A stretch of DNA of 64,000 nucleotides from an uncultured Eubacteriales bacterium (GTDB lineage Bacteria; Bacillota; Clostridia; Christensenellales; CAG-917): positions 17,879 to 81,878 of the forward strand of contig URIX01000002.1 in the NCBI GenBank assembly GCA_900547975.1, read 5' to 3'. The notes under the pieces were generated by a model. That model ran no database searches. It was not told the origin of the DNA and was given only the letters and a program-made list of their open reading frames with translations. Of the stretch, positions 646-51,412 are shown one piece after another (position 1 is the first letter of the stretch; each line of letters starts with the position of its first letter). Position numbers and translations under genes: made by a program.

Positions 646-652
646 GAAATGC

Positions 653-680
653 AAAAACCGCGTATCTAACGCGGTTTTTT
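653..680 (+). terminator. rho-independent terminator of ssrA, repeated at 823-851 and 995-1022
   Basis: AAAAACCGCG-tatctaa-CGCGGTTTTTT hairpin followed by a T-run. Confidence 0.8.
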
Positions 681-698
681 CATTTAGTGGGAATGTGT

Positions 699-751
699 GG
701 GGATTATGCGATTTTGGCAAAATCGCATCACGGCAATGCCGTGTGAACCCC
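699..751 (+). other. split inverted T-arm module, unit 1
   Basis: GGGGATT, then hairpin ATGCGATTTT/ggc/AAAATCGCAT (706-728), then hairpin CACGGC/aat/GCCGTG (729-743), then TGAACCCC. With the hairpins removed the flanks rejoin to the exact reverse complement of the ssrA T-arm (619-633). Confidence 0.7.
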
Positions 752-869
752 TTTCGGCTGCACGCGATTGACCTATGGTAGCAATCGCTGTTGGGCAAAT
801 CCCGTACTTCCACCAGAAATGCAAAAAACCGCGTATCTAACGCGGTTTTTTCATTTGGTAGGAATGTGT

Positions 870-922
870 GGGGATTATGCGATTTTGGCAAAATCGCATC
901 ACGGCAATGCCGTGTGAACCCC
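870..922 (+). other. split inverted T-arm module, unit 2
   Basis: Same sequence and layout as 699-751, one repeat period downstream. Confidence 0.7.
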
Positions 923-1041
923 TCTCGGCTGCACGCGATTGACCTTTGGTAGCAATCGCTGTTGGACAAAACCCCGCACTTCCACCAGAAATGCAAAAAC
1001 CGAGTATCTAACGCGGTTTTTTCATTTAGTGGGAATGTGTG

Positions 1042-5189: not shown

Positions 5190-5210
5190 GTATTGCGTTT
5201 TATACTTCTA

Positions 5211-6596: not shown

Positions 6597-6766
6597 AAAG
6601 TTATCTCCTTTCGCACTCATCCGGATGATGAGCCGATAAATATTGTGTATAAATAATAGAATAACGGCGCAAAAAAGTCAAAGATAATCGTTATATAACA
6701 TAAATTAGGATATATTTACAAACCGTTCAAGCGGAAAGCGGATTGAAACGAAAAGCCATATTCGTC

Positions 6767-6805
6767 GAAAGCGGACAACGAAAGCGTACAACGAGAGCGG
6801 ACAAC
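6767..6805. repeat. 3 x 13-bp tandem repeat
   Basis: GAAAGCGGACAAC GAAAGCGTACAAC GAGAGCGGACAAC, between the Cys-rich gene and the glyQS promoter region. Confidence 0.8.
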
Positions 6806-6963
6806 GTAAACGAACGTAAGCGAGTCAAAACGGAACGTGCTTGTAAATCGGCAAGCGGAGCAAATCAAACGCGCCACCTCGTTTGAGATGACGCGTTTGC
6901 GACGTAGATACAAAAACATAACTTCGGGCAATTCGTGCTCACGTTATGCCCGCGCGACGTTTG

Positions 6964-7161
6964 TTATTTGCAGCAACCGCAGCCGCCCGTGCCGCCACCG
7001 CAAATGCAGGAAAGGATGAGAATCAGCCATACGATGTCGCAAGAATTGCATCCGCCCATCGTGCCGCCGCAACCGCAGTTGTTCAAGAGCATCAAGAGCA
7101 AAATAATGTCGCAACAATTACAGCCGCATCCGTTTGCACCGTTTGTAAAGAATCCGTTCAT
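6964..7161 (-). CDS. Cys/Gly-rich micro-protein (65 aa) with two hydrophobic cores, possibly YjcZ-like
   Basis: GAAGGAGG RBS 7 nt before the ATG. Sequence is GCGCNCCDIILLLMLLNNCGCGG then GGCNSCDIVWLILILSCICGGGTGGCGCC, an internal duplication. Confidence 0.6.
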   Translation of the reverse strand: MNGFFTNGANGCGCNCCDIILLLMLLNNCGCGGTMGGCNSCDIVWLILILSCICGGGTGGCGCCK

Positions 7162-7268
7162 TTTATGTACCTCCTTCTATATTCGGATTGCTCCTACATT
7201 ACCTTACGCAACCTTTGAAATTTGTGTTACAAAGGCATTGAACGGATTTGAGATAAATATATTTTTGT

Positions 7269-7733
7269 GTGGATCAATTAAAGCGAATGATAGGAATAGT
7301 TGCGGGATTGCTGCTTACGCTCGTAGTGTCGGGGTTATGCTCGCTTTGCTTCAACATCGACTTAAAATGGTGGATTGCGCTCGATAAACCTGCGTTTGTG
7401 TTGCCAAACGTGTGGTTCAGCGTGTTCGTATGCGCAAGTTATTTGTCGTCGGTGCTTGCAATATCGAGGCTTGTCGAGTACAAACATATTTTTCCGTCGA
7501 TGCTTTATTTTTTTGTTTTGGGAATATTTTGCGTGCTGTTCGTGTTTTCGTTTTTCACGCTTAAAAATTTGCTCGTTGCATTCATATCGATGACGATAGT
7601 GCTTGCAACGTCCTATGCGCTCTTTATCCGCTTCCTCACGAAAGAAGTGAAAATAGCCCTTGAATTTCTGCCTACTTTTCTATTCAACGTCTACGGCTTT
7701 TTGTGCGTTCTCTGCATTTTTATGAACAATTAG
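7269..7733 (+). CDS. TspO/MBR-like five-TM membrane protein
   Basis: WWIALDKPAFVLPNVWFSVFV resembles the TspO W..L.KP...PP..F..VW motif. About 150 aa and hydrophobic throughout. Start uncertain (GTG at 7269 or ATG at 7287). Confidence 0.5.
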   Translation: MDQLKRMIGIVAGLLLTLVVSGLCSLCFNIDLKWWIALDKPAFVLPNVWFSVFVCASYLSSVLAISRLVEYKHIFPSMLYFFVLGIFCVLFVFSFFTLKNLLVAFISMTIVLATSYALFIRFLTKEVKIALEFLPTFLFNVYGFLCVLCIFMNN

Positions 7734-7860
7734 ATGCTCGGCAAATGACAATATATTATGTTTGATTTCTTCAATAGCATATGAAAAAATAAGTTTATAT
7801 TTAGAATTGCAGTATGAAATTCAAATCTAAGTTATAAATAATAAACAATCAAAGGTATCA

Positions 7861-7887
7861 AAAAAAGACGAACGAAGTCGTCTTTTG
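7861..7887. terminator. hairpin terminator, one of three copies of the same hairpin
   Basis: AAAAAGACGAACGAAGTCGTCTTTT. The same hairpin occurs at 9040-9066 and, inverted, at 10417-10443. Confidence 0.6.
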
Positions 7888-7997
7888 TTGTATGCAAATA
7901 CCTATTTCGATACAATTTGCGTACACCCCATAAAAAGTGCGTACACCTTGTCAAAATTTGCGTACAGTTAAACGCACCGATAAATTGGAATTTGACG

Positions 7998-8480
7998 TTA
8001 TAATTTCAGTACTGCAATCAATTCTTTCCCATCCATATCTCCTGTTTCCTCAAATCCGAAAGAATGGTACAGGTGTTTGGCAATATCATTTTCGGGTTCA
8101 TATGACAGCCAACAGTACTCTGCTTTACCACAAGGCGATGAGTTTATGAAATCTAACGCCAAACTAAGTGCTTCTTTTCCATATCCCATGTTTTGGAATT
8201 TTCTGTCTATCATAAATCGCCAAAGATTATAATTACCAGAGGCTATTTGGGGGGCATCTTCCCAATAATCGTCTTTGTCAAAACCTATCATCAAAAAACC
8301 AATGGGAGTATCATCCTCATATATTCCAAAGGGATAGGCATAGCCATTTCCTGTTATTGCTGTATATGCTTCAATAATACTTACATCATTACTTGCAACA
8401 AAACCTTCTTGTTCTTTCGCTACTTTTAATTCGAGAATATCCCACACATTCTTTCCGTTAATTCTCTCTAATCGTAACAT
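7998..8480 (-). CDS. GNAT family N-acetyltransferase (diamine/spermidine acetyltransferase-like)
   Basis: The RFMIDRKFQNMGYGKEAL acetyl-CoA binding motif (Q/RxxGxG/A) sits in a 160-aa protein. Confidence 0.8.
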   Translation of the reverse strand: MLRLERINGKNVWDILELKVAKEQEGFVASNDVSIIEAYTAITGNGYAYPFGIYEDDTPIGFLMIGFDKDDYWEDAPQIASGNYNLWRFMIDRKFQNMGYGKEALSLALDFINSSPCGKAEYCWLSYEPENDIAKHLYHSFGFEETGDMDGKELIAVLKL

Positions 8481-8576
8481 ACTTTGCTCCTCACAAAATT
8501 CTTATTTATCGTTGAGTCTATTATAGCACAAATTTCGCATTTTTTCAATACATTCGCCTACCGTATAACGAAAAAA

Positions 8577-8630
8577 CTTTCGTTCCGTAGCAATATCTAT
8601 CGTTCCGTTGATAGACCTTTCGTTCCGTAG
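8577..8630. promoter_or_regulatory. three direct repeats TCGTTCCGT at an exact 20-bp period upstream of the GNAT gene
   Basis: cttTCGTTCCGTag at 8577, ctaTCGTTCCGTtg at 8597, cttTCGTTCCGTag at 8617. Confidence 0.45.
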
Positions 8631-8697
8631 TTGTTTGCTGTAAAAAACAGAACCCTGCAAAAGTGCGGTTAAACATTCCGGCAAGTCATACAAAATT

Positions 8698-8845
8698 TAA
8701 TGAAATCCTGCTTTGCAGGATGAAATCTTAGGTGTGCAACCTCAGATGAAATCAAATCCGCCTCAATTAACCCCGTGTTAGAGGGATTTCATCACAAGGT
8801 GATTTCATCCACGAAGTGGATTTATTCCGACGAAGGCGGATTTAG
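8698..8845. repeat. array of GATGAAATC / GATTTCATC 9-mers interleaved with mini-hairpins
   Basis: (A/G)ATGAAATC occurs 3 times (8699-8753), then GATTTCATC 2 times (8785-8810) plus degenerate GATTTAT and GATTTAG. AAATCCGCC (8753-8761) pairs with GGCGGATTT (8835-8843). Confidence 0.7.
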
Positions 8846-8847
8846 TT

Positions 8848-8889
8848 AAAAAAGACTGCAATTTTGTATCAAAATTGCAGTCTTTTTTT
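8848..8889. terminator. bidirectional terminator
   Basis: AAAAAAGACTGCAATTTT-gtatc-AAAATTGCAGTCTTTTTTT. Confidence 0.75.
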
Positions 8890-9072
8890 GGTGCGGATGA
8901 CAGGACTTGTAGCGAGAGAAACGAGCGTAATAGCGATTGTTGCGCAGTATGCGCCAATCGTGTCAGCTGCACAAGTGCAGGTTGCAAACATTGTTTGCCG
9001 ACAATTGAAAAATTGTCGCAAGTCCGTTGCCGTAACAAAAAAAAGACGAACGAAGTCGTCTTTTGTTGCGTG
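8889..9072 (-). repeat. stand-alone inverted copy of the element that follows tRNA-Leu
   Basis: Reverse complement matches 10414-10590 with only a few substitutions. It ends in CAAGTCCTGTCATCCGCACCA (8909-8889), a tRNA-Leu 3' end copy with one mismatch. Confidence 0.9.
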
Positions 9073-9184
9073 TGTACGGCAAAATCTCGTTTTTCGGGCG
9101 ATTTTCGAGAGTGTGTTGGACGATAAGTACTTTTTTGCGATTGTTATGAAGAGTGTGGTGGATGATAAGCATTGGTTGCTCTGA

Positions 9185-9652
9185 TTAATTTACAAATTCC
9201 AAAACGGTTTCATCTTCATTTATGCGGTACACAAACGGAGAATAGGCTTTTGCTATCTTTGTCCAAAGTTTTTTTGCTCCTACATTTTTCTCGTTGTATT
9301 TTATTTCCCATTTGCCATGATAGATTGATAAAATCAAATTAACTGCATCGATTGCATAATGATTTCTTCGGTAGGAAGGAAAAATCGTAAACTCTGCTAT
9401 CGTATAATCCGGATGATGTCCGATAGCGGAGTATGTATTCAACATAACAAAACCGACCATAATTTCATCATCGTAAATGAAAAAGGCTTTTCTCTCCGCA
9501 TCGGTAAAATACGCATCAAAATATTCGTAATGATAATTTCCTTGTTCGTCCATGTTGTCAGGATAGTACTTTGTCATCTCATACAAATATTTTTGATTTA
9601 TATTCCATAAAAGTTTGCGTTCTTCCGCTTTAACTTCTTGTAATCTGATCAT
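9185..9652 (-). CDS. GNAT family acetyltransferase
   Basis: 155 aa. FTIFPSYRRNHYAIDAV lies at the acetyl-CoA pocket position, and the overall length and pattern fit small GNAT proteins. Confidence 0.65.
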   Translation of the reverse strand: MIRLQEVKAEERKLLWNINQKYLYEMTKYYPDNMDEQGNYHYEYFDAYFTDAERKAFFIYDDEIMVGFVMLNTYSAIGHHPDYTIAEFTIFPSYRRNHYAIDAVNLILSIYHGKWEIKYNEKNVGAKKLWTKIAKAYSPFVYRINEDETVLEFVN

Positions 9653-9735
9653 CTTTATTCCATCGCGTTATTCAAATTTGTCTTTGGTATAATTTTAGCA
9701 TATTATGCGGTGCTTTTCAATCAAACGCATAGGTA

Positions 9736-9776
9736 TAAAAATATCGGTCTGTAAGAAAAGACTTACAGACCGATGC
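9736..9776 (-). terminator. terminator of the tRNA-Gly/tRNA-Lys unit
   Basis: ATCGGTCTGTAAG-tctttt-CTTACAGACCGAT followed by ATTTTT on the minus strand. Confidence 0.75.
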
Positions 9777-9779
9777 GTT

Positions 9780-9855
9780 TGGTGCATCCTCAGGGACTCG
9801 AACCCTGGACCCACTGATTAAGAGTCAGTTGCTCTACCAACTGAGCTAAGGATGC
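9780..9855 (-). tRNA. tRNA-Lys (anticodon CUU)
   Basis: Cloverleaf GCATCCT...AGGATGC-A-CCA, anticodon loop CT-CTT-AA, T-loop GGTTCGAGTCC. Confidence 0.93.
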
Positions 9856-9946
9856 ATATCTCGGCGACAATTACGCTTTATGCGGTCGTTGTCGCTCCCT
9901 AGATATTTTGAACGACCATTGCTGATCGTTCAATTCCGCTTGCGCG

Positions 9947-10104
9947 TGGAGCGGGAGACGGTGTGGTCGCTTTCGCGACAACCTTCGGTGCGAACCCTTG
10001 CGGGTCTGCGATTGCATCGCACTTCACTGTGTGAAGCCGAATCCCGTCAACCGATTGCTCGATTTTCAAAGATTCTTTTTCACTCACACTATCGTTGCTT
10101 CCGT
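9947..10104 (-). repeat. 158-bp insert downstream of tRNA-Gly(GCC), ending in a direct copy of the tRNA's last 15 nt
   Basis: TGGAGCGGGAGACGG at 9947-9961 repeats 10105-10119. Split inverted T-arm module at 10046-10001 (minus strand): CGGGATTCGG, CTTCAC/aca/GTGAAG, TGCGAT/gca/ATCGCA, GACCCG. Confidence 0.85.
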
Positions 10105-10179
10105 TGGAGCGGGAGACGGGATTCGGACCCGCGACTTTCACCTTGGCAAGGTGACACTCTACCACTGAGTCACTCCCGC
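10105..10179 (-). tRNA. tRNA-Gly (anticodon GCC)
   Basis: GCGGGAG...CTCCCGC-T-CCA, anticodon loop TT-GCC-AA. Confidence 0.93.
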
Positions 10180-10328
10180 AAGCACAAATTACTATATCAA
10201 ATCAATTTGCAAAAAGCAACAATTTTTTGCCATAAAGTTAAAAATATTTTATAAAATCAGCATATAACACTCTTAATTTTGTTTTTGCTTTACAGAAACC
10301 GAAATTATGCTATAATAATGATGTTTTT

Positions 10329-10413
10329 GCGGATGTGGTGAAATTGGCAGACACGCAAGATTTAGGTTCTTGTACTATATAGTGTGCAGGTTCAAGTCCT
10401 GTCATCCGTACCA
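10329..10413 (+). tRNA. tRNA-Leu (anticodon UAG), class II with long variable arm
   Basis: GCGGATG...CATCCGT-A-CCA, anticodon loop TT-TAG-GT, 85 nt. Confidence 0.92.
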
Positions 10414-10590
10414 ACAAAAGACGACTTCGTTCGTCTTTTTTTTGTTACGGCAACGGACTTGCGACAATTTTTCAATTGTCGGCAAACAATGTTTGCAACC
10501 TGCACTTGTGCAGCTGATGCGATTGGCACATACTGCGCAACAATCGCTATTACGCTCGTTTCTCTCGCTACAAGTCCAGTCATCCGTACC
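10414..10590 (+). repeat. 177-bp element downstream of tRNA-Leu, ending in a copy of the tRNA 3' end
   Basis: Terminator AAAAGACGACTTCGTTCGTCTTTTTTTT. Module GGACTT, CGACAATT/tttc/AATTGTCG, GCAAAC/aat/GTTTGC, AACCTG (10455-10502). CAAGTCCAGTCATCCGTACC (10571-10590) matches tRNA 10393-10412 at 19 of 20 positions. Confidence 0.88.
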
Positions 10591-10750
10591 CAAAAAGCCT
10601 CTAAGCAGTAGATGTTTAGCGGCTTTTTCATTTTTCGCTAAGAAAAACTGTTTATCTTTTGCCACAAAACAATAAAATCATTGATATTTTGAGCAAAAAA
10701 TTCCAAGAAAATAAAAAGCCAAACCGCCACCGGTGCGGATTGGTAAAGTG

Positions 10751-10924
10751 TGGTGGAGATAAGGGGATTCGTAGGAAGCGACCTGGACGCTTCCGTAATA
10801 GCGTCAGCGTCAGCCCGTAGTGGTTCGCACGGTGAAACCGTGGTGCGATTTTTGAAAAAATCGCGCAATCCACTTATTCCCCACAAAAAAAACAAGCCGA
10901 ACAGAGTTCGACTTGTGTTCTTTT
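10751..10924 (-). repeat. 174-bp insert downstream of tRNA-Ala, ending in a perfect 21-nt copy of the tRNA 3' end
   Basis: TGGTGGAGATAAGGGGATTCG at 10751-10771 equals 10925-10945. Terminator at about 10886-10920. Split inverted T-arm module at 10874-10819 (minus strand): AGTGGATT, two hairpins, CGAACCACT. Confidence 0.88.
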
Positions 10925-11000
10925 TGGTGGAGATAAGGGGATTCGAACCCCTGGCCTTCGCATTGCGAACGCGACGCTCTACCAACTGAGCCATATCCCC
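10925..11000 (-). tRNA. tRNA-Ala (anticodon CGC)
   Basis: GGGGATA...TATCTCC-A-CCA with the G3:U70 alanine identity pair, anticodon loop TT-CGC-AA. Confidence 0.92.
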
Positions 11001-11183
11001 ACATTCGCTTTTAGAAACATTCGATTTGTTCCTTGCTGTGTTATTATATCACATTATTTGATTTTGACAATTAATTTTTAACCTTTTTTTTGATATATTC
11101 TAAAAGGATTCGTGTGCTAACACATATAATACGGCTTCAAATGGATTTTGTTTGAATTTTTTTGGGAAAAATATAAAAAAGTA

Positions 11184-39694: not shown

Positions 39695-40126
39695 ATGACT
39701 AAAACCCAAGAAGAAATTACGCGAAACATGCGTAGCAATAAATGCAGAGATACAAAACCGGAGTTATTGTTGCGCAGCGAACTATGGAAACGCGGATTAC
39801 GATATAGGAAAAACTATAAAAAATTAGTCGGAAAACCCGATATCGTATTTGTAGGAAAGAAAATCGCGATTTTCGTAGACGGAAAAATGTGGCACGGATA
39901 CGACTGGGAAAATCAGAAAAACGATTTCAAATCGCATCGAGATTTTTGGATTCCGAAAATAGAACGCAACATCGCTCGTGACAAGTTCGTAAATCAACAA
40001 TTGGAAAACGACGGGTGGACTGTGCTGAGATTTTGGGATTTCGAAATAAAAAAACACCTTTCGGATTGTGCAGATAAAATAGAAAACATATACAACGAAA
40101 AAAAGATCATCGGAACGGAGATATAA
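39695..40126 (+). CDS. vsr: very short patch repair endonuclease (Vsr)
   Basis: TKPELLLRSELWKRGLRYRKN...GKPDIVFVGKKIAIFVDGKMWHG...WTVLRFWDFEI. Confidence 0.88.
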   Translation: MTKTQEEITRNMRSNKCRDTKPELLLRSELWKRGLRYRKNYKKLVGKPDIVFVGKKIAIFVDGKMWHGYDWENQKNDFKSHRDFWIPKIERNIARDKFVNQQLENDGWTVLRFWDFEIKKHLSDCADKIENIYNEKKIIGTEI

Positions 40127-40127
40127 G

Positions 40128-41135
40128 ATGTTAAAAAGTATTGATTTATTCGCAGGTATCGGCGGCATTCGGCTCGGGTTCGAAAATGCCTTCGGCGACG
40201 AATTGAAAACGGTATTCGTCAGCGAATGGGACGAATACGCTCAAAAAACTTATAAGGCGAATTTCCACGACGATTTCGAAATCGCCGGCGATATAACGAA
40301 GATAAAGGAAACGGATATTCCCGACTTCGATATATGTCTTGCGGGATTCCCTTGTCAGGCATTCAGTTTGGCAGGACAGCGCAAGGGCTTTAAAGACGAT
40401 TATAAAGGAATGTCTCGCGGCACGTTATTTTTCGACGTGGCGAGAATTTGCGCCGAGAAAAAACCGAAAGTAATTTTCTGCGAAAACGTAAAAGGTTTGA
40501 CGATACACGACAAAGGAAGAACATTCGAAATTATTACCGAAACACTCAAAGAAATCGGTTATACTCCGTTCGAACAAATATTAAACAGCCGTAATTTCGG
40601 CGTTCCGCAAAACAGAGAACGCATTTATATCGTTGCATTCAGAAACGATATAGCCCCGAAAGAATTTATCTTCCCCGCGAAAACCGACGATACGAAACGT
40701 ATTCGCGATATTATGGAAGAAAATCCCGTTCCCGCGAAATATTATCTCAGCACCTGCTATATGGACACTCTTATCAGACATAAAGAACGTCACGCGGCGA
40801 AAGGACACGGTTTCGGATATGAAATTCGAGATCTCGACGACGTTTCGGGCGCAATTGTATGCGGCGGTATGGGCAGAGAAAGAAATTTGATTATAGATAA
40901 AAGACAGACGAATTTAACGCCTACTACCCACATTAAGGGTGAAATCAATAAAGACGGCATTCGCAAAATGACTCCGAGAGAATGGGCAAGACTGCAAGGG
41001 TTTCCGGACGATTACAAATTCGTTTTGGCGGACGTTCATCTTTACAAGCAATTCGGAAACAGCGTAACCGTTCCCGTAATACAAGCAATAGCGGAAAAAA
41101 TCAAAGAGGTACTCGATAAAAATGGCAGAGATTAA
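40128..41135 (+). CDS. DNA (cytosine-5)-methyltransferase, copy 1
   Basis: Motif I DLFAGIGG, IV GFPCQAFS, VI ENVKGL, X QFGNSVTVPV. Confidence 0.92.
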   Translation: MLKSIDLFAGIGGIRLGFENAFGDELKTVFVSEWDEYAQKTYKANFHDDFEIAGDITKIKETDIPDFDICLAGFPCQAFSLAGQRKGFKDDYKGMSRGTLFFDVARICAEKKPKVIFCENVKGLTIHDKGRTFEIITETLKEIGYTPFEQILNSRNFGVPQNRERIYIVAFRNDIAPKEFIFPAKTDDTKRIRDIMEENPVPAKYYLSTCYMDTLIRHKERHAAKGHGFGYEIRDLDDVSGAIVCGGMGRERNLIIDKRQTNLTPTTHIKGEINKDGIRKMTPREWARLQGFPDDYKFVLADVHLYKQFGNSVTVPVIQAIAEKIKEVLDKNGRD

Positions 41136-42288
41136 AGGGAAAAATAAGGGCGAATGGTCCGAAATGTACATTTTCTTCAAATTAATGTCCGATAGAAAAG
41201 TTTACGTCGCGGACAAAGATATGAATAAACTGAAAGACGTATTCTTAAATATCGTCAGTATTATTCGTGAAGAAGTTGCGGGTAAAGAATATCGTTATTT
41301 TACGGGCGATAAAGTGGTTATCACGCTTAACGGCGAAACCGTAATGACTTTGGATTCTTCATTGTTTACGGAAAAAGCCGCACGCGTTTGGAAAATGATA
41401 ACCGAAAATAAGGGCAATACTACTTTTACCGACGACGAAATCAGAGAATTTCTCGAGTCGATTTTCATTCACAATATATCGGCTCCCGCACAAAAGAAAA
41501 ACGATTATTTCGGCGGCACGAAAGATATCGTTCTCGATACGATAGATTATCGCTCCGGCGTAAGTCAAATAATGGGCTTTTCCTGTAAATCGGATATCGA
41601 TGCCGCATCGACGCTATTCAATGCAAGCGGAGATAATACTAATTTCGAGTACGAACTGGTCGGAAATATAAACGACGATGTAATGAACGAATTTAATTCG
41701 TTATTTAACGAAGTGATCCGGAAAGGCGTAGTTTGTCACGACGTGGCAACCGGCAGCCGTATGAATTATTTGAAGTCCTGTGGCATCGATGTAAAATTCG
41801 TAAATCCCGTAAAGGAAACCGCAAGACAAAATTTGATACGTTGCGGCGGTTTGGAAACTCCTGCCATTGTTGCGGAGATGTTGAAATATTACTACTACGA
41901 CAAATCGGGAGCGGATACATCTCTCGATGAAGCGATTAAACATCTTGCCGAATCCGATCCCGCAGGGTATTCTTTCGGCGAGTTATACGATACATATCAT
42001 CTGAAAATAGCAAATCTTTTGTATTCCATGTTCACGGGCTTGCGTTTTTCAAAACCGTGGAACGGCAAATCCGATGTGAGCGGCGGATATATCGTTGTTA
42101 AACGCGACGGCGACGTCGTTGCTTTCCACTCCTGCATTGCCGACGAATTCAAGGATTTTCTTGTGGACAAATTAAAGTTCGAAGCACCGTCTTGCAGTCG
42201 TCACGATTATATGTCGATTTATAAAAAAGACGACGGCAAATACTATCTGAAATTTGCCCTGCAATTCAGATTTAAATTGAAAAAATAA
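41122..42288 (+). CDS. type II restriction endonuclease, HpaII-family-like (tentative)
   Basis: N-terminus KGKNKGEWSEMYIFFKLMSDRKVYV resembles what I recall of HpaII-family enzymes. It overlaps the upstream methyltransferase by 14 nt and sits in a vsr-M-R arrangement. Confidence 0.55.
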   Translation: MAEIKGKNKGEWSEMYIFFKLMSDRKVYVADKDMNKLKDVFLNIVSIIREEVAGKEYRYFTGDKVVITLNGETVMTLDSSLFTEKAARVWKMITENKGNTTFTDDEIREFLESIFIHNISAPAQKKNDYFGGTKDIVLDTIDYRSGVSQIMGFSCKSDIDAASTLFNASGDNTNFEYELVGNINDDVMNEFNSLFNEVIRKGVVCHDVATGSRMNYLKSCGIDVKFVNPVKETARQNLIRCGGLETPAIVAEMLKYYYYDKSGADTSLDEAIKHLAESDPAGYSFGELYDTYHLKIANLLYSMFTGLRFSKPWNGKSDVSGGYIVVKRDGDVVAFHSCIADEFKDFLVDKLKFEAPSCSRHDYMSIYKKDDGKYYLKFALQFRFKLKK

Positions 42289-43223
42289 TGAGAGTATGCA
42301 GTTTGTTTTGCGGAATCGGCGGAATAGACCTTGCCTTTACGCAAGCCGGGCATGAAATCGTATGGGCTAACGATATCGATAAATATGCCTGCATGACCTA
42401 TCGGCACAATTTCCCCGAGTCGGTTTTGATCGAAGGCGATATTCGCGCGATCGATAAACACGATATCCCCGATTTCGATATACTTGCGGCAGGGTTTCCT
42501 TGCCAACCGTTTTCGGTTTGCGGAAAACAAAAAGGCTTTTCGGACGAACGCGGAAATTTATTCTTCGAAATCGGAAAAGTAATCGATGCGAAACATCCGT
42601 CTATCGTGTTTTTAGAGAATGTGGCAAATCTTATCGAACACGACCACGGTAAAACGTTCAACGTTATTCATAACGAACTTGCGTGGCGCGGATATTTTAT
42701 TCGCTACCTGATTGCAGATGCTTGCGATTACGGCATTCCGCAACACAGAATGAGAACCTATATCGTCGCATTTTCGGACAGAACCGCCTGCGAAAATTTT
42801 ACGTTTCCGGAAAAAGTTCTGCTCGAAAAACGAATAACAGATATTATCGACGTAACCGTAAAAGCTGACGACAAATATTACTATTCACCCGTTTCTGCAA
42901 AGTATCAACGTTTAAGTCGATATATTACCGACGAAAAGCAGTTGTATCGATTTGCGGATTACGGTGTCCAATCGGGCAAAGACGGCATATCGTTTACGCT
43001 CAAAGCGAATATGGGAACGTATTACGACCGAGTGCCGATTATAAAGGATAATTTCGGCATACGAAATATCACGTTGACGGAATGCCTTGCTTTACAAGGT
43101 TTCCCGAAAAGCTTCTCTTTTCCTCTTGCCGTTCCAGAGAGAGAACAATACAAACAAACTGGAAATACTGTGTGCGTAGGAATAATAGAAAAAATAATTA
43201 GGTGTATTACAAAAGATGAATAA
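42288..43223 (+). CDS. DNA (cytosine-5)-methyltransferase, copy 2
   Basis: SLFCGIGG, GFPCQPFS, ENVANL, QTGNTVCV. The start overlaps the upstream stop (TAATG). Confidence 0.9.
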   Translation: MRVCSLFCGIGGIDLAFTQAGHEIVWANDIDKYACMTYRHNFPESVLIEGDIRAIDKHDIPDFDILAAGFPCQPFSVCGKQKGFSDERGNLFFEIGKVIDAKHPSIVFLENVANLIEHDHGKTFNVIHNELAWRGYFIRYLIADACDYGIPQHRMRTYIVAFSDRTACENFTFPEKVLLEKRITDIIDVTVKADDKYYYSPVSAKYQRLSRYITDEKQLYRFADYGVQSGKDGISFTLKANMGTYYDRVPIIKDNFGIRNITLTECLALQGFPKSFSFPLAVPEREQYKQTGNTVCVGIIEKIIRCITKDE

Positions 43224-43788
43224 AATATTTAAATTGCCGACAAAATCCGACTTAAAGAGTCGTACATCTACTATCAGTAATGCTTTTGCAATAGCTATTA
43301 CTCCGTATATTTATCCTTCATTAAATGAAATTGAACACTTTTTAAAGGAATTACATCTTGAACAAGGACAATGTGCATATTGTTTAGGCAAAGCAAACGC
43401 AATGGATCATGTAAAACCTTTAGTTACAGGTGGACTACCAACCGGATATATTACTGAAATTCGAAATTTAGTTCCTTGCTGTTCAGCTTGTAACAGTGCA
43501 AAAGGTGCACAGGATTTTAGAGCTTGGTACAAAAGCGAAAAAAATATTAAGCGATTGCACTCTGAGGGATTAACTGATACTGAAATTAATGAGCGTTTTG
43601 ATATCGTTTCACGATATATTGATAAAATTCCTGCGCCAATTGATTACAAAACAATACTTGGCGATAACTTGTGGAATGAATTTCTACATAGAAAAGAAGA
43701 AATGGTGCGTCTTCTAAAAGAAGATCAATTGTTTTGCGATGAATTAAGTGCTATAATTAAAAACAAAATCGATTCGGAGAATAATTGA
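43216..43788 (+). CDS. HNH endonuclease (candidate restriction partner of methyltransferase 2)
   Basis: CAYCLGKANAMDHVKPLVTGG...NLVPCCSACNSAKG. 8-nt overlap with the upstream gene. Confidence 0.8.
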   Translation: MNKIFKLPTKSDLKSRTSTISNAFAIAITPYIYPSLNEIEHFLKELHLEQGQCAYCLGKANAMDHVKPLVTGGLPTGYITEIRNLVPCCSACNSAKGAQDFRAWYKSEKNIKRLHSEGLTDTEINERFDIVSRYIDKIPAPIDYKTILGDNLWNEFLHRKEEMVRLLKEDQLFCDELSAIIKNKIDSENN

Positions 43789-43789
43789 T

Positions 43790-44851
43790 ATGCCTTTTGA
43801 AGTAATAGATTTGTTTTGCGGAGTCGGAGGGCTTACATGCGGAATGCGACAGGCAGGCTTTCGTGTTGTAGCCGGATTCGACAATGATCAAACATGTGAA
43901 TATACATATAGCCACAATAATCATACGGAATTCCATTGTAGAAATATCAAAGAAGTAACAGGAGCGGAAATAAACGGTTGTTATTCGTCCGGTGCTCAGA
44001 AAATCCTTGTAGGTTGCGCGCCATGTCAACCGTTCTCGACAATGAGCTATAAGCGTTTTATTGCATCACCAAGAGAAAATGATATGAAATATGATTTATT
44101 ATCGGAATTCGGAAGACTAATAAAGGACGTTCAGCCTGTCATTGTTGCTATGGAAAACGTGCCCGAGTTAAGGAATACAGGTGTTTTTCAAAGCTTTTTA
44201 GAAACTTTGAGAGATAACGGATATTTTACCGACGGCGGTCGTGTTGTATATTGCCCCGATTATGGCATTCCGCAAAACAGGCACAGATTTATTCTATTAG
44301 CATCAAGAATCGGAGAGATTACACTTCTCCCTCCTACTCACAAGCGAAAAGAAGTAACGGTTCGTCCGTTTATTGAAAAATTACCTCCCATTGCAGCCGG
44401 AGAAATGTATGAATTCGATAAACTCCACCGCACGGCAAGTCTTTCCGAAATAAATCTAAAACGTATTAAAGCGTCTGTTCCCGGTGGAACTTGGAAAGAT
44501 TGGCCCGAAGAATTAAGATGCGCTTGTCACAAAAAAGATTCGGGACAAACATATACGTCTGTTTACGGTAGGATGTCTTGGGATAAAATCGGACCGACTA
44601 TGACAACACAGTTTTTCTGTTACGGCACAGGACGATACGGTCATCCGGAACAAGATAGAGCTCTATCCTTACGCGAAGGAGCTTTGTTGCAAACGTTTCC
44701 CCGAGATTACGAATTCTTCCCGCCAGACGTCACTGATTATTGCATGAGAGACGTGGCACGGCACATAGGGAATGCTGTTCCTGTTCGCTTGGGCGAAATC
44801 ATAGGATGCTCAATAAATAAACATTTAGAAAAATATACGGAGGTGCACTAA
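43790..44851 (+). CDS. DNA (cytosine-5)-methyltransferase, copy 3
   Basis: DLFCGVGG, GCAPCQPFS, MENVPEL, HIGNAVPV. Confidence 0.9.
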   Translation: MPFEVIDLFCGVGGLTCGMRQAGFRVVAGFDNDQTCEYTYSHNNHTEFHCRNIKEVTGAEINGCYSSGAQKILVGCAPCQPFSTMSYKRFIASPRENDMKYDLLSEFGRLIKDVQPVIVAMENVPELRNTGVFQSFLETLRDNGYFTDGGRVVYCPDYGIPQNRHRFILLASRIGEITLLPPTHKRKEVTVRPFIEKLPPIAAGEMYEFDKLHRTASLSEINLKRIKASVPGGTWKDWPEELRCACHKKDSGQTYTSVYGRMSWDKIGPTMTTQFFCYGTGRYGHPEQDRALSLREGALLQTFPRDYEFFPPDVTDYCMRDVARHIGNAVPVRLGEIIGCSINKHLEKYTEVH

Positions 44852-46737
44852 TGCCAATAGACTTTAAATTAAAAGTTAGTCCGAGAATGCTTGAATTGCT
44901 CAGTAAAGATTTGTATACAAATATGTATTTCGTATTGGCTGAGTTAATCGCCAATTCATATGATGCAGATGCTGAAAATGTATATGTGTATATTGATGAT
45001 GATGAAATACGGGTAGAAGATGATGGTAACGGTATGAGCCCGGACAATCTAAACGATAAGTATTTATTGGTTGGCGGGGAATCCAGAAATTCCGAAGATA
45101 ATGCACGCACATCTAGGAAGAATCGTTTAAAAATGGGAAGGAAAGGAGTTGGTAAATTGTCGGCGCTTTCTATTTCAAACGGTTTTAAACTAGTTACTGT
45201 TTGTGATGGATATACCATTGGATTGTTTATTCCGAATCGTATAGAACATGATGATGAATCGTTAAGAGTTTTGAGCCAAAACGAGTTTTCATTAAAAAGA
45301 ATTACGAATCATGGAACGGCTGTTATAATGGAGTCGCCGAAGGTGGCAATTCCGAAGCTACAAGATACTGTATTAAAGAATCTTGCAAAAATATTTCCAA
45401 ATGATATAGAAGATTTTAAAATACATGTTGTGTTTAAAGGCGAAGAGAAGATTTTGATTCCCGATGAGAAAGACGTGATTATGCGGTTGGCTTCGTTTAT
45501 TTCTATAGGGGACGAAAAAAGATATTTGGCTGAATCGTTGCCAACAAATGAGAAAAATTTACAAAAGGATCATTTGGATGCTTATGAAGAAACTATAGAA
45601 ATGTATGATAGTAACAATGTGCTTAAAGAAATTACGGTGCGCATATATGGCTGGATTGGTACTTACAAAACTACTCGCGGGATGAAGAGGGAAATTAATG
45701 AGTTTTCAGACAACTATTTGGCAATTTTCGCACACAATAAAATGGGATTGCGAAATATATTACCAATAATCGGAAAAAACCGTGTTTATGAGAGTTATAT
45801 TGTTGGGAATTTGTATATAGATGCCTTTGAAGCTGCTAATTTCCCAGACATGGCAGGAACAAACCGTCAAGGTTATAATGAAAACGATCCCAGGTGGATT
45901 ACAGCATTAAAATATATAAGAGAAATAACGGATAGAATTGTAAAACTGCATGAACAGTTTGCCATTGCCGAGAAAATTGAAAAAGACACGGAAAAAGAAG
46001 CGAAAAAAGAAGCCGATGAGTTAGCTTTGAAAGAACGTCTTGACCGCGCTACCAAAAATATAACAGAAAATATAGCGCGTAAAATAAATGATAATACGTC
46101 TCCTGAACAGATCAAGCAAGCGGTTTCATCGGAAATTGAAGCCATGAAACCCATTCTCGGATTTAAGTCTATAGTGGATGCGAATAAAAAGAAAATAATG
46201 ATAAGCCAAACATGGAAAGATAAAATTGTATCCGATGTAATTTATCAAATGCTTCTATTTAATGGCGTACCCAAAGAGGACATCATATATTCAAATGGAC
46301 CCGATCCGGAAACGAACTTACCTGAACGAGATATTTATGGTTATCTACAGAAATTCTTTATTCACAGTGCATCCACCGAAATGATATATGTGCTGTTTGT
46401 AACAAGTAAGAATGTTTTGAATGTTGAAGAAGATAACCCTTCTGCGAGTTGGGGCGTTTTAATGGAAATAGGTGCGGCATGGGTTACGAAAAAAGATCAC
46501 TGGATTTTTAATATAGACAATTTCAAGCCCGAGCAGCCGCTTAATATTGAAGATAAATGGGTCGCAATTTATACGATAGATGATGAAGCTGGAAACAAAA
46601 TTTTATCTCTAACAGAGGCTATGGCAAATAGCTTTTGCAATAAAATAATTGCAACCTGTTCCGCATGCGGATATACCGCAAAAGCTTTTGAGAATAATAA
46701 AAAGTATTTGGTAGATAACTTTGTAGCGATTTGTTAA
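44851..46737 (+). CDS. GHKL (HATPase_c_3 / MORC-like) ATPase with coiled-coil linker and TIR-like C-terminal domain
   Basis: Bergerat-fold motifs ELIANSYDA, DDGNGM, GRKGVGKLS. Lys/Glu-rich helix at about residues 370-420. C-terminus has KIMISQTWKDK...IIYSN...VLFVTSKN...SASWGVLMEIGAAW. The start overlaps the methyltransferase 3 stop (TAATG). Confidence 0.75.
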   Translation: MPIDFKLKVSPRMLELLSKDLYTNMYFVLAELIANSYDADAENVYVYIDDDEIRVEDDGNGMSPDNLNDKYLLVGGESRNSEDNARTSRKNRLKMGRKGVGKLSALSISNGFKLVTVCDGYTIGLFIPNRIEHDDESLRVLSQNEFSLKRITNHGTAVIMESPKVAIPKLQDTVLKNLAKIFPNDIEDFKIHVVFKGEEKILIPDEKDVIMRLASFISIGDEKRYLAESLPTNEKNLQKDHLDAYEETIEMYDSNNVLKEITVRIYGWIGTYKTTRGMKREINEFSDNYLAIFAHNKMGLRNILPIIGKNRVYESYIVGNLYIDAFEAANFPDMAGTNRQGYNENDPRWITALKYIREITDRIVKLHEQFAIAEKIEKDTEKEAKKEADELALKERLDRATKNITENIARKINDNTSPEQIKQAVSSEIEAMKPILGFKSIVDANKKKIMISQTWKDKIVSDVIYQMLLFNGVPKEDIIYSNGPDPETNLPERDIYGYLQKFFIHSASTEMIYVLFVTSKNVLNVEEDNPSASWGVLMEIGAAWVTKKDHWIFNIDNFKPEQPLNIEDKWVAIYTIDDEAGNKILSLTEAMANSFCNKIIATCSACGYTAKAFENNKKYLVDNFVAIC

Positions 46738-46820
46738 AAACGACAAAGTGTAAAAAATAGGAATGGCATTTTGATCTATGCAATTTTTTGGCATTTGGCT
46801 GCAACAGTATAGCACAAAAA

Positions 46821-47495
46821 TCATTCATAAATTGCGGCATATCGTTGTCGCATTTTGATGAAGTATTCAAACACGGTGGATTGCGCTCGCTCGAGTATGG
46901 CGGCGATTTCGGGATAACTCAGTCCGTTTTGCCTACATTCGAGCGCAATTCTCATATTGTCCGTCAAATTGAGGCTGTCAACGATTGAATCATAGACGGT
47001 ATAGTCTTTGACAACATCTTCTTCAATCTCGCAAGACGGTTCACTTACGGGTGTTAAAGCGTCAAGGCTCACGGAGCGGTAGTAATCGCTTGTTTTTCGT
47101 GTGATAAGTTTAGACATTGATCTAATGCACGCAATCTTGACCGTTATTGCCTTGCCCTTTTTATCGTATGCCAAAACGTCGTTTAATTGCTTTCCGTAAT
47201 GATTACAAAGGAATAGCGCGCCTTCTTGCACTAAATCATAACTGTCGCTGAAAGTGTGGTTAATATCTTTTTTACGTTTTATATCAACGCATAGGTCTGC
47301 ATATATCTTTTGCATTTTGGCTCCCATATATCCGATGAGGAATCGTGTTTCATACATCGCCAACTGTTCTGCCATTGCAAGAACGTTGTTATGAGAGATT
47401 GTTTCTTTGAAAACGTCATAATTTTCAATATGTTTTTTCATTTTGGAATGCGCTCCGAGTTTTATTTGCCTTTCGGCAACAAGACGGCGCAGCAT
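46821..47495 (-). CDS. sigma-70 region-4-type HTH protein (mobile-element sigma/regulator-like)
   Basis: C-terminal LTDNMRIALECRQNGLSYPEIAAILERAQSTVFEYFIKMRQR is a sigma region-4 / LuxR-type HTH. 224 aa. Confidence 0.5.
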   Translation of the reverse strand: MLRRLVAERQIKLGAHSKMKKHIENYDVFKETISHNNVLAMAEQLAMYETRFLIGYMGAKMQKIYADLCVDIKRKKDINHTFSDSYDLVQEGALFLCNHYGKQLNDVLAYDKKGKAITVKIACIRSMSKLITRKTSDYYRSVSLDALTPVSEPSCEIEEDVVKDYTVYDSIVDSLNLTDNMRIALECRQNGLSYPEIAAILERAQSTVFEYFIKMRQRYAAIYE

Positions 47496-49590: not shown

Positions 49591-49609
49591 AATCAAAATA
49601 GTATATATT

Positions 49610-49787
49610 GCCCTCGATTTTTACAGATACCGGCGAAACAAACAGATATTATAAATGCGCCGGCAAAAAGAAATATCACAATGGTTGCACGAAAAGTCAA
49701 GTGCGCAAAGAGTATCTCGAAGATATTGTCGTCAACGCAATCATAGATGAGTTGAATCGCCTGGGAGCAATAGAGTACTACCGATGA
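49610..49787 (+). pseudogene. large serine recombinase C-terminal zinc-ribbon fragment
   Basis: The in-frame translation reads YYKCAGKKKYHNGCTKSQVRKEYLEDIVVNAIIDELNRL. It has no start and is fused directly to the integrase remnant. Confidence 0.6.
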
Positions 49788-50237
49788 TATACACCTTGAC
49801 GAAAGATACATTGTAATAAACAAGCAAATGCAAAACGGTGAAGTTGTCCCGCCCAAAACCGATAGCGGAAATAGAAACGTACCGATTATCGATGTTTTGT
49901 ATCCGTATTTGAAAGACATAGACTTTTCAAAGCACGAAAGATTGTTCCCGATAAAAGAACACGCATTGCGTGTGTATTTCAAAACGCATTGAAAGCAAGT
50001 GGCTTGGACGGTATGGGTTTTACAATTCATTGCTTGCGCCATACCTACGCAACGAGATGTGCTGAAAATAATGTAAATCGTGTTGTTGTTCAAAAATGGG
50101 TTGGACATTCAACGGCGGATATGACAGAAAACGTTTATACGCACATCAATAATGATTTCGAGAAAGACGAAATCGAAAAATTTAATAAGGGGGTAAACGA
50201 TACATATAATCAAGAAAAAAAGACTATTCGGAAATAA
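49786..50237 (+). pseudogene. tyrosine recombinase/integrase catalytic domain, N-terminally truncated and frameshifted
   Basis: PPKTDSGNRNVPII...LFPIKEHALRVYFKT, stop at about 49990, then in another frame GFTIHCLRHTYATRCAENNVNRVVVQKWVGHSTADMTENVYTHI (the R..HxxR..Y catalytic signature). Confidence 0.8.
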
Positions 50238-50428: not shown

Positions 50429-50536
50429 ACAACGCAGTCTATCTTATCACCAAAACAAAGTTTTTGCAACAAATATACTGCACTTTTTTGCCGAATGTAA
50501 ATAATTTTTGTTTCGGCTGTGACAGATTATCAAAAC

Positions 50537-51073
50537 GTTTGATTTTCTGCCCGTTCGAATCCGATGAAGTTATCATTGAACTCGAACTTATATCGACTCT
50601 ATTTAGAGTGATGTTTCAAAAGTGGGGTGAATAGTGGGATTCGCGCCGTTTGACCTATGCCGAGCGACTCGCGCTACACAGGCACGCATCTTTATGCGTT
50701 TCCGTACGACTTTTCGAAGGTCTGCACTATCACGCCGGGGCAGTCAAACAATTCACAGGATTGTTTGATTTTCTGCCCGTTCGAATCCGATGAAGTTATC
50801 ATTGAACTCGAACTTATATCGACTCTATTTAGAGTGATGTTTCAAAAGTGGGGTGAATAGTGGGATTCGCGCCGTTTGACCTATGCCGAGCGACTCGCGC
50901 TACACAGGCACGCATCTTTATGCGTTTCCGTACGACTTTTCGAAGGTCTGCACTATCACGCCGGGGCAGTCAAACAATTCACAGGATTGTTTGATTTTCT
51001 GCCCGTTCGAATCCAATGAAGTTATCATCGAACTCAAACTATATTGACTCTTTTCAGAGTAATTTATCAAAAG
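50537..51073 (-). repeat. tandem array (about 2.4 units of 225-226 bp) downstream of tRNA-His, each unit ending in the tRNA's last 21 nt
   Basis: TGGGGTGAATAGTGGGATTCG at 50623-50643 and 50849-50869 equals tRNA-His 51074-51094. Units 1-2 are near identical; the unit next to the tRNA is slightly diverged. Confidence 0.9.
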
Positions 51074-51151
51074 TGGGGTGAATAGTGGGATTCGAACCCA
51101 CGACCTCCAGGGCCACAACCTGGCACGCTAACCAACTGCGCTATATCCACC
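51074..51151 (-). tRNA. tRNA-His (anticodon GUG) with encoded G-1
   Basis: G-GTGGATA...TATTCAC-C-CCA, anticodon loop TT-GTG-GC. Confidence 0.92.
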
Positions 51152-51267: not shown

Positions 51268-51412
51268 GTAATGGAGCGGGTATTTGGAATGCCGCACTTT
51301 TGCATGCAACATATTCCACTAAACCGCAAGCCGTTTTGGACAGGTTTTGTACGATGCGGCAATCTCGCTTTTCGCTCGATGCGGACCGTCCAATTCCCGT
51401 CAAAGACGGTAA
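51268..51412 (-). repeat. 141-bp insert downstream of tRNA-Gly(UCC), ending in a 14-nt copy spanning the tRNA 3' terminus
   Basis: GTAATGGAGCGGGT at 51268-51281 repeats 51409-51422. On the minus strand GACGGGAATTGGAC just after the tRNA resembles the inverted T-arm GATGGGAATCGGAC. Confidence 0.7.

Follow-up and report, generated by a model that had tools for sequence, protein, structure and literature searches.

A tandem tRNA-tail array behind tRNA-His and a family of RtT-like elements in a gut Clostridia lineage

Results

The array between tRNA-His and tRNA-Gln

The window, by which we mean the whole stretch of 64,000 nucleotides analysed here, carries a tRNA operon on its minus strand, resolved by ARAGORN and Rfam as tRNA-Gly(tcc) (51486-51413), tRNA-Arg(tct) (51232-51156), tRNA-His(gtg) (51150-51074), tRNA-Gln(ttg) (50428-50354) and tRNA-Lys(ttt) (50351-50276). 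Tandem Repeats Finder places an array directly after tRNA-His, at 50537-51094 (period 226, 2.5 copies, 96% matches, score 1046). An exact 21-mer, CGAATCCCACTATTCACCCCA in the tRNA sense, occurs three times (51094-51074, 50869-50849 and 50643-50623) with spacings of 225 and 226; by our own arithmetic the chance expectation for three exact 21-mer copies in 64 kb is ~1e-7. This sequence, hereafter O, corresponds to the final 21 nt of tRNA-His, starting at T-loop residue C56 and ending with the CCA. The first-pass annotation had described an array with periods of 225 and 226 and three 21-nt tails, lying inside a tRNA operon and regenerating the tRNA tail in each unit. All of this is borne out by the repeat call and by the exact O copies at 50869-50849 and 50643-50623. 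The features of the operon that bear on the array are as follows.

51272..51412, minus strand: second element in the His operon, after tRNA-Gly(tcc); structured body of ~120 nt and a degenerate O (51291-51272)
51074..51150, minus strand: tRNA-His(gtg) (ARAGORN, Rfam, exact 21-mer); O copy 1 is 51094-51074
50870..51073, minus strand: proximal full element body, a′ (51073-50989) and b (50988-50870)
51060-51047, minus strand: small hairpin of the proximal body, in a′
51014-51005, minus strand: inverted T-arm GGATTCGAAC of the proximal body, in a′
51004-50964, minus strand: hp1 of the proximal body
50962-50951, minus strand: anti-O GGCGTGATAGTG of the proximal body, in b
50925-50910, minus strand: hairpin ACGCAT/ATGCGT of the proximal body, in b
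50908-50880, minus strand: helix CCTGTG../..CATAGG of the proximal body, in b
50849..50869, minus strand: O copy 2, the exact tRNA-His 3′ end including the CCA
50644..50848, minus strand: second full element body, a (50848-50763) and b (50762-50644), the latter equal to the proximal b
50623..50643, minus strand: O copy 3, exact 21-mer
50537..50622, minus strand: truncated older copy, part a only, ending in the left half of hp1
50429..50536, minus strand: native spacer between the array and tRNA-Gln, outside the element; it has weak promoter-like matches

The layout is thus tRNA..O - a′(85) - b(119) - O - a(86) - b(119) - O - a(86) - 108 nt native spacer - tRNA-Gln. The 119-nt b parts of the two full units are 100% identical, and the two distal a parts are identical to each other. 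Part a′ differs from a at ~11 positions (~10 substitutions and one indel), all confined to the first 86 nt past the 21-mer, so that the tRNA-proximal unit is the most diverged, as had been noticed. Also present in both full units, as listed at the outset, are the inverted T-arm GGATTCGAAC, a bulged hairpin GGGCAG..CAAACAAT-CCTGTGA-ATTGTTTG..CTGCCC and the hairpin ACGCAT-AAAG-ATGCGT. The repeating entity is an element of ~225 bp, O+a+b, and the array comprises two complete copies and one truncated older copy. A 21-nt core with a 205-bp unit that stops at 2.5 copies does not describe it: the last half (50537-50643) is the truncated copy, which joins the native flank at a shared heptamer, ATCAAAC.

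Several simpler identities were rejected. A CRISPR array, discounted from the start, is incompatible with 205-nt stretches between the 21-mers that are themselves repeated, with part b 100% identical. The units contain no conserved ORF, and the longest in the window's unit (67 aa, antisense) is not kept in the sister species, so coding potential was dismissed. ARAGORN calls nothing in the units and, read from the sequence, the T-arm-like stretch is unable to form a T-stem, which disposes of a tRNA-like fold. Rfam returned only tRNA and tmRNA at gathering scores and chance-level matches at permissive E-values, so a known RNA family was also rejected.

No terminator-like site was found inside the His array, and the only one in the operon follows tRNA-Lys. 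Together with a good promoter match upstream of tRNA-Gly(tcc), this makes co-transcription of the array with the operon plausible.

Copy number and decay at the His locus of relatives

Loci from relatives were collected as contigs encoding the exact neighbouring YfcE-like protein, then homologues at 99%, 97% and 88% identity and more distant ones. This yielded the His-Gln interval from many independent assemblies of human and pig gut origin, most of them short-read metagenomes. Full units number zero in L002, L050 and L073, one in L001/3/4/5/6, L051-53/56, L057/60/61/62 and L072/75, and two in the window, L054 and L058/59. The copy-number variation among strains that the first-pass annotation had suggested looking for therefore exists, with 0, 1 or 2 full units in relatives and in two sister lineages. 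In L054 the two units differ by several SNPs, showing that the two-unit state is real and not the product of collapse or expansion during assembly.

The sister species at 88% identity clarifies where the element ends. It carries the element, and part a has no similarity to its native flank, which begins CATTGATATCAAACC.. after the distal O; part a therefore belongs to the element. It follows that the zero-unit alleles L002 and L050, which retain O - a - native piece, are not virgin sites in the window's species and keep a truncated old copy. The fusion of that copy at ATCAAAC accounts for the 0.5 unit at 50537-50643. A third lineage (L072/L075 versus L073) presents the same situation with a different truncation point. 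L050, which has no full unit, carries a mosaic a′/a, the product expected from homologous recombination between two a copies.

Neighbouring copies can be diverged, strongly so in the case of a4 and a5 of L072. Decay is found on the distal side, with the distal copy truncated in the window's lineage and in L072 and the distal O decayed in the L057 group. Some allele pairs differ by exactly the insert, namely L072/75 versus L073 and L001 versus L002 at the His site, and the window versus L072/73/75 at the Gly(tcc) site, where the window has a clean 141-bp insertion and the relatives a 41-nt spacer; gain and loss fit these pairs alike. Divergence of the His element between lineages roughly keeps pace with that of neutral flanking DNA, which suggests vertical inheritance and not recent mobility.

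A family of elements in the window

We searched for every tRNA and tmRNA tail, and its reverse complement, across the window and supplemented this by direct reading of the sequence. The same design was present at a minimum of seven sites: behind tmRNA, Gly-gcc, Leu-tag, Ala-cgc, Gly-tcc and His, and at one orphan locus. Six of the ten tRNA/tmRNA genes of the window are followed by an element. The first-pass annotation had drawn a parallel between the His array and an array at tmRNA; these are indeed one phenomenon, and five further sites of the kind came to light. In this design, the tRNA 3′ end (O) is followed by a spacer, an inverted partial copy of O (anti-O), GC-rich hairpins and a second O. 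Besides the two elements of the His operon, the sites are as follows.

646..1041, plus strand: tmRNA-linked array; type-1 units 646-815 and 816-987, both terminated by a tmRNA 3′-end copy, then a truncated type-2 start
8890..9066, minus strand: orphan Leu-type element with no tRNA gene upstream; terminator, body and O-like CAAGTCCTGTCATCCGCACCA
9947..10104, minus strand: element of the Gly(gcc) type; anti-O GACGGGATTCG lies in the body, with four short hairpins, and the O copy is 15 nt long
10414..10591, plus strand: element of the Leu(tag) type, with a terminator of its own followed by anti-O, hp1-hp3 and motif GCTATTACG; its O copy is degenerate
10751..10924, minus strand: element of the Ala(cgc) type, with a terminator of its own followed by anti-O, hp1, hp2 and motif GCTATTACG; its O copy is exact over 21 nt

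Units range from 140 to 230 bp, with long forms of 300-410 bp, and the O copies reproduce the last 15-21 nt of the host gene including the CCA. Identity with the host gene begins exactly at C56 in the tmRNA, Ala, Leu and His types, and at position 61/62 in the Gly(gcc) unit. The spacer fits the site, with a rho-independent terminator at operon ends and none within the His-Gln operon. The tmRNA, Ala and Leu units are visibly related, sharing the order own terminator, anti-O, hp1, hp2, (G)AACC, hp3, CTGA, variable middle, 3′ motif and O; type-2 units and the Ala and Leu forms share the 3′ motif GCTATTACG..GCTA. The His and Gly units could not be aligned convincingly with the tmRNA and Ala units by direct comparison, and their membership in the family rests on architecture (O, anti-O, hairpins), not on sequence. 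Some types have a conserved TATTAC in a loop of the 3′ domain, which the His, Gly and tmRNA type-1 units lack. We take this motif to resemble HUH nick sites.

Folding and covariation

When each type was folded alone, anti-O paired with the downstream O as a closing helix around three or four short hairpins. Fold z-scores lay between -2.6 and -4.1 across types, with -1.6 for the His unit of the window. In that unit the anti-O GGCGTGATAGTG (50962-50951, and 50736-50725 in the second copy) pairs with CACTATTCACCCC, the acceptor part of the next O. This helix, and not the inverted T-arm, is the defining pairing; it closes the multi-hairpin domain, as its counterpart does in E. coli RtT.

Covariation was quantified on an alignment (A2) of 13 sequences from tmRNA, Ala and Leu units, in which 91% of cells are paired. 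The covariation score was 0.347, against 0.173 in shuffles (0/500 reach the observed value, a significance overstated by the shuffle control because the sequences are related) and at most 0.13 with slid partners. Double, compensatory changes are found in the closing helix and in hp2. The stronger argument comes from the slid control combined with the entirely different stem sequences of the Leu type. Since MAFFT left hp1 out of register for some types, covariation of hp1 is shown by the individual folds only. Beyond this alignment, whichever gene is targeted (tmRNA, Ala, Leu, Gly, His or Ser, and Tyr in E. coli), anti-O changes along with it. Templated correction of quasi-palindromes is an established mutational mechanism and could keep the anti-O and O arms matched without any function.

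We also attempted to assign the functional strand through G.U asymmetry or the relative stability of sense and antisense folds. This was abandoned as there was no difference: both strands fold with equal stability, and neither has many G.U pairs. Helices of equal stability on both strands, with few G.U pairs, make a DNA-level role at least as likely as an RNA one.

Relatives elsewhere

A degenerate pattern of the 5′ domain matched eight loci in GTDB genomes, including a long-read Christensenella sp. MAG and several uncultured Clostridiales, and gave eleven true gut matches in metagenomes; the remaining soil and water matches sit in unrelated sequence and look like chance. The units recovered with this pattern are linked to tmRNA and Ala in gut Clostridia genomes and metagenomes, and the design as a whole is found in relatives at tmRNA, Ala, His and Ser genes. 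At tmRNA the arrays are heterogeneous. In L016 a type-1-like unit precedes a type-2 unit whose terminator differs, all three units of L044 are different, and in L012 a long (322-nt) type 2 comes after two identical units; the short type 2 is an internal deletion of the long form. tRNA-Ala is followed by one unit in the window and L019 and by two in L022 and L025. In L077 the order is tRNA-Ser(gct) - 2.66-kb int-HTH-Rep element - O - long Ser-type unit - O - native flank.

The array had no blastn match among INPHARED phages, two exact His-unit patterns and the family pattern had none in the IMG/VR viral contigs, and PLSDB plasmids matched only the tRNA-His gene itself. A phage or plasmid origin was accordingly rejected. 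The suggestion that the unit might occur elsewhere thus holds for the family in the window and for gut Clostridia relatives, and fails for the phage, viral-contig and plasmid collections.

Similarity to the RtT repeats of E. coli

The classical precedent, which the first-pass annotation did not name, is the RtT repeat of E. coli (Rfam RF00391; rttR, tpr). At tyrT, a 178-bp sequence repeated 3.14 times downstream of tRNA-Tyr, each repeat with a tRNA-Tyr tail, has been known since the 1970s; the historical papers on the tyrT/tyrV repeats are reportedly those of Egan and Landy (1978), Rossi et al. (1981) and Boesl and Kersten (1991). In NC_000913.3 we found the array with a period of 178, 3.1 copies and 95% matches, overlapping the last 19 nt of tyrV, and Rfam reports four RtT copies at 133-138 bits. 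The units end in the tRNA-Tyr 3′ end ATCCTTCCCCCACCACCA, and an internal GGGGAAGGAT, the anti-O, pairs with that end to close a domain of short GC-rich hairpins. RtT is present in 4741/5426 complete E. coli genomes, at 1-14 places per genome, and is annotated as an sRNA in RefSeq. Its function is still described as unclear (bioRxiv 10.1101/2024.07.17.603846).

The likeness is one of architecture. Both kinds of repeat lie directly behind a tRNA gene, are often tandem, end each unit with a copy of the tRNA 3′ end including the CCA, and contain an internal segment complementary to that copy which closes a multi-hairpin domain. They differ in that the E. coli units start at A58 whereas most types in the window start at C56, in that the tmRNA, Ala and Leu types of the window carry their own terminator, and in their host, here a gut Clostridia lineage and not Enterobacteria. 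Moreover, within the 64 kb of the window the design follows six or more different tRNA/tmRNA genes, each of which has its own matching O and anti-O. The RtT covariance model has no match in the window at its gathering score (45 bits), none in 50429-51094 or 600-1150 at E ≤ 10 and none in 8800-11100 at E ≤ 1. The same architecture with no match to the model at the thresholds tried makes the elements an analogue or very distant relative of RtT, not a member of that family. They are a non-homologous variant of a known and unexplained type of tRNA-tail repeat, here with multiple targets and signs of mobility.

Integrase-bearing elements at tRNA 3′ ends

Genomic islands and prophages placed by tyrosine integrases in tRNA or tmRNA 3′ ends are flanked by attL and attR and can accumulate in tandem. 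Islands that target tRNA genes restore the gene and displace its 3′ fragment, as set out in PMC4383910 (Islander) and in PMC9897764. The units resemble such islands in their boundaries, with the regenerated tRNA gene intact on one side and its displaced 3′ end, in direct orientation, on the other, and apparently in having the newest insert proximal and older ones distal. In contrast to islands, they lack an integrase or any other conserved ORF and measure 140-230 bp (long forms 300-410 bp). Unlike classical attP arms, they also contain covarying hairpins and an inverted target copy.

Integrase remnants are close by, limited to fragments at 49777-50234 in the window, which adjoin tRNA-Lys(ttt) and are part of another element. 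In relatives we found a 2.66-kb int-HTH-Rep element bounded by copies of the tRNA-Lys(ttt) end, with related elements in two tRNA-Ser genes. On the tRNA side it carries a terminator of its own, and beside the displaced tRNA end it is hairpin-rich and non-coding; in L077 it lies proximal to the Ser-type mini-element. The 3′ ends of tRNA genes are live targets of integration in these genomes. As a parent of the mini-elements, int-HTH-Rep was rejected: the layout is alike, the arm sequences are unrelated, and its non-coding arm has no homology to the mini-element bodies.

The units can also be compared with CIMEs and MITEs, which they resemble in having att-like flanking repeats, no recombination genes, short forms that are internal deletions of longer ones, and tandem accumulation with other integrated elements (L077). 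They differ in that no autonomous parent with the same ends was found, int-HTH-Rep being the one autonomous family examined. Described CIMEs, the cis-mobilizable elements of streptococcal ICEs, are kb-sized, and the units here are far smaller.

Discussion

How the elements may arise and spread

We see an even chance that these are non-coding RtT-like elements which insert at the T-loop, regenerate the tRNA end and afterwards undergo unequal recombination. On this account the element would start exactly after T55 of the T-loop and bring a replacement O, and the displaced original 3′ end would follow it. New copies would enter on the tRNA-proximal side by conservative site-specific recombination in the T-loop (position 55/56), catalysed by a recombinase supplied in trans. 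Each insertion would regenerate the tRNA and push older copies outward, where they would decay. At tRNA-His the copy number could then drift between 0, 1 and 2 by unequal homologous recombination between direct repeats of 21-107 bp, and the folded domain may act as RNA or as single-stranded DNA.

Insertion at the T-loop is supported by the fixed C56 boundary in four element types, by regeneration of the gene together with a spacer that fits its context, by the divergence of neighbouring copies and the intact-proximal, decayed-distal polarity in three lineages and L077, by the clean 141-bp difference at Gly(tcc), and by tRNA-end integrase activity in these genomes. The mosaic a′/a alleles support the subsequent step of unequal recombination. 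Against insertion, no recombinase, circular form or autonomous parent was found for the elements, and a classical tyrosine integrase would act poorly on a circle of ~200 bp. One old two-copy array could, through homologous recombination alone, have given rise to every His copy-number state, and the His element looks vertically inherited. Furthermore, at least five target specificities in one family would require many integrases or a single enzyme that reads only the universal T-arm, and the phage, viral-contig and plasmid collections gave no match to the units.

The main rival, possible though less likely, is that the units are a functional RtT-like trailer RNA, co-transcribed with the tRNA and trimmed at the pseudo-CCA by the tRNA 3′-end machinery, and that the arrays are due solely to unequal crossing-over or slippage and perhaps kept for dosage. 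The uninterrupted stretch between tRNA-His and tRNA-Gln, free of a terminator and downstream of the operon promoter match at tRNA-Gly(tcc), would allow such an RNA to be made, and the conserved secondary structure with compensatory changes, together with GNRA- and UUCG-type loops on the tRNA-sense strand, is what one would look for in it. The similar architecture of E. coli RtT, an annotated sRNA with 1-14 copies per genome, and the apparent vertical inheritance of the His element point the same way; the mosaic a′/a allele is evidence of homologous recombination between repeats. However, a strong terminator heads the tmRNA, Ala and Leu units, whose bodies could be transcribed by read-through only, and equal folding of both strands with rare G.U pairs is unusual for a selected RNA. 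Nor does a trailer RNA explain how a single body family came to follow several tRNA genes, its O and anti-O suited to each, why it is always the distal copy that is truncated, or why the C56 boundary recurs in four types. The first-pass annotation had suggested looking for RNA processing at the pseudo-CCA ends; judging by the sequence, a DNA-level role would be at least as likely. If they are transcribed, the units would add hundreds of structured nucleotides to tRNA operon transcripts.

Improbable, in our view, is a guided or folded-strand scheme in which the element, as single-stranded DNA or RNA, presents anti-O:O as a mimic of the target to an enzyme that reads structure, in the manner of integron attC sites, CTXphi with XerCD, or HUH-like enzymes, and is inserted by it. 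A corollary is that a change of O and anti-O would retarget the element to another tRNA. The covariation of anti-O with its target in all types and the existence of several targets for one body family are in keeping with this, as are helices that are Watson-Crick on both strands, as DNA hairpins should be, and TATTAC in the 3′-domain loop, with its likeness to HUH nick sites. Purely by analogy, the units share with integron attC and CTXphi attP (XerCD) an inverted repeat that may rebuild the duplex of the chromosomal target, and also tandem arrays and compensatory changes in helices; no IntI- or Xer-type enzyme, attC R/L box or dif-like site was seen. On the other hand, no associated enzyme was found, we know of no single-stranded intermediate, and the His, Gly and tmRNA type-1 units are without TATTAC; templated quasi-palindrome correction could match anti-O to O with no function behind it.

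We regard as highly improbable that the units are decay scars, two att arms left by internal deletion of larger integrase-bearing islands. The integrase fragments at 49777-50234 by tRNA-Lys(ttt) and the intact 2.66-kb int-HTH-Rep element of relatives demonstrate that such islands occur here, the tRNA-side terminator and hairpin-rich non-coding region of int-HTH-Rep by the displaced tRNA end resemble the parts of a unit, and short type-2 units do derive from long ones by internal deletion. Yet random deletions are unlikely to leave 140-230 bp with the same order (anti-O, hp1, hp2, hp3, 3′ motif) at seven sites, no unit is homologous to the arms of the int-Rep element, and no intermediates with coding remnants were seen in ~60 relevant loci.

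Finally, it is next to impossible that faulty assembly made an array out of a single unit. The concern was raised from the outset; short-read assemblers can miscount tandem repeats, and most related contigs are short-read metagenomes. However, the proximal and second units differ at ~11 positions, which places reads unambiguously, two units are found in independent assemblies (L054, L058 and L059), diverged by SNPs in L054, and other genes and a long-read MAG show the design again.

Implications

The RtT-type architecture of an unrelated gut Clostridia lineage, which here follows most of the tRNA and tmRNA genes, opens to comparison what had been a curiosity of one locus, with target-matched inverted copies, polymorphism for the presence of units and a polarity from proximal-new to distal-old. 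Among the questions that can now be put are what gene accompanies the elements, whether they form circles or insert anew, and whether the fold plays its role as RNA or as DNA.

A wider and speculative proposal, to which we assign a small probability, is that RtT-like elements are widespread protein-less mobile DNA, retargeted by swapping O and anti-O, whose duplex in the folded single strand would mimic the T-arm and acceptor for a structure-reading recombinase or HUH enzyme. Were this so, the E. coli tyrT repeats, a 45-year-old puzzle, would be a fossil of the same retargeting process.

In practical terms, the units yield partial tRNA hits and false att sites that mislead tRNA annotation and island-finding software. 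We also record that, where units stand in tandem, a b-O-a junction looks no different from that of a circle, and that the hairpins, the fixed left boundary after GGTT and the TATTAC of some types are suggestive of a PATE of the IS200/IS605 type.

Repeat units behind the tmRNA gene

The tmRNA gene carries its own array of units, the non-coding, RtT-like repeats that follow tRNA and tmRNA genes and contain a copy of the host gene's 3′ end.

281–1110, plus strand: tmRNA gene and downstream array (units of type 1, type 1 and partial type 2)

The two type-1 units are 170–172 bp each, and the third comprises only the start of a type-2 unit, ending abruptly at ~1075. Every unit includes the tmRNA terminator. 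Among relatives, both the order and the types of unit at the tmRNA vary, with type 1, short type 2, long type 2 and hybrid forms observed.

Two contigs of the clade with tmRNA arrays (L012 and L010) come from MAGs whose records name Phascolarctobacterium succinatutens and Anaeroplasmataceae. The contigs are probably mis-binned, because their tmRNA tag peptides agree with the Clostridia group.

Orphan elements and rearrangement or deletion between repeats

A degenerate tail of the Ala type is found a short distance upstream of an orphan Leu-type element.

8890–9066, minus strand: orphan Leu-type element, upstream tRNA gene absent
9080–9190, minus strand: degenerate Ala-type tail, GCTTATCATCCACCACACTC

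The orphan is 98% identical to the element linked to tRNA-Leu(tag), and the region 8890–9190 looks like a graveyard of fragments from tRNA ends.

A displaced 3′ fragment of a different tRNA (GTTCAAATCCCCATGGACGCCTACCA) was also observed in the related contig L034 (5335–5366). It marks one end of an island with methylase and HATPase genes, and immediately upstream is its position relative to an Ala-type unit whose tRNA-Ala has been lost.

In another related contig, L025 (stretch 4476–8590), a gene for a 1188-amino-acid surface protein lies between tRNA-Ala and the Lys-Gly-Leu tRNA cluster, and the relative orientation of tRNA-Ala is opposite to that in the window. The window lacks this gene at the corresponding position (10592–10750); therefore, a rearrangement or deletion has taken place between tRNA-linked repeats.

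A conserved motif in the 3′ domain

The 3′ domain contains a motif conserved in Ala, Leu and tmRNA type-2 units and absent from His, Gly and tmRNA type-1 units. It occurs at many loci, in a loop or single-stranded stretch.

10807–10815, minus strand: GCTATTACG
10546–10554, plus strand: same motif
8934–8926, minus strand: same motif

The TATTAC within it resembles the sequences at which HUH Rep proteins nick DNA.

Mobile elements and a variable island near the tRNA genes

Integrase remnants adjoin tRNA-Lys(ttt).

49608–50237, plus strand: integrase fragments, C-terminal half of a 318-amino-acid protein

In two related contigs (L066 and L068) the same integrase is encoded by an integrative element that is still intact (2.66 kb; for example, L068 2203–4864). 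The element carries int, an HTH gene and an HUH rolling-circle Rep gene, and a copy of the tRNA-Lys end lies at each of its borders. This Rep has >1200 homologues, many from contigs of 2.5–3.1 kb. Relatives of the int-HTH-Rep element also occupy tRNA-Ser(gct) and tRNA-Ser(cga).

39695–47495: island on the left side of the tRNA cluster; encodes two DNA cytosine methylases plus an HNH and a HATPase_c_3 protein

Its gene content differs from strain to strain (L001 versus L002, both related contigs), and relatives' versions include a HpaII-type restriction enzyme. The region resembles an island for restriction-modification or defence.

Intergenic 20-bp tandem repeats near the tRNA cluster could be iteron-like or operator repeats.

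8580–8650: three copies, beginning ACGGAACGAAAG
7910–7966: 2.8 copies of ATAAAATTTGCGTACACCCC
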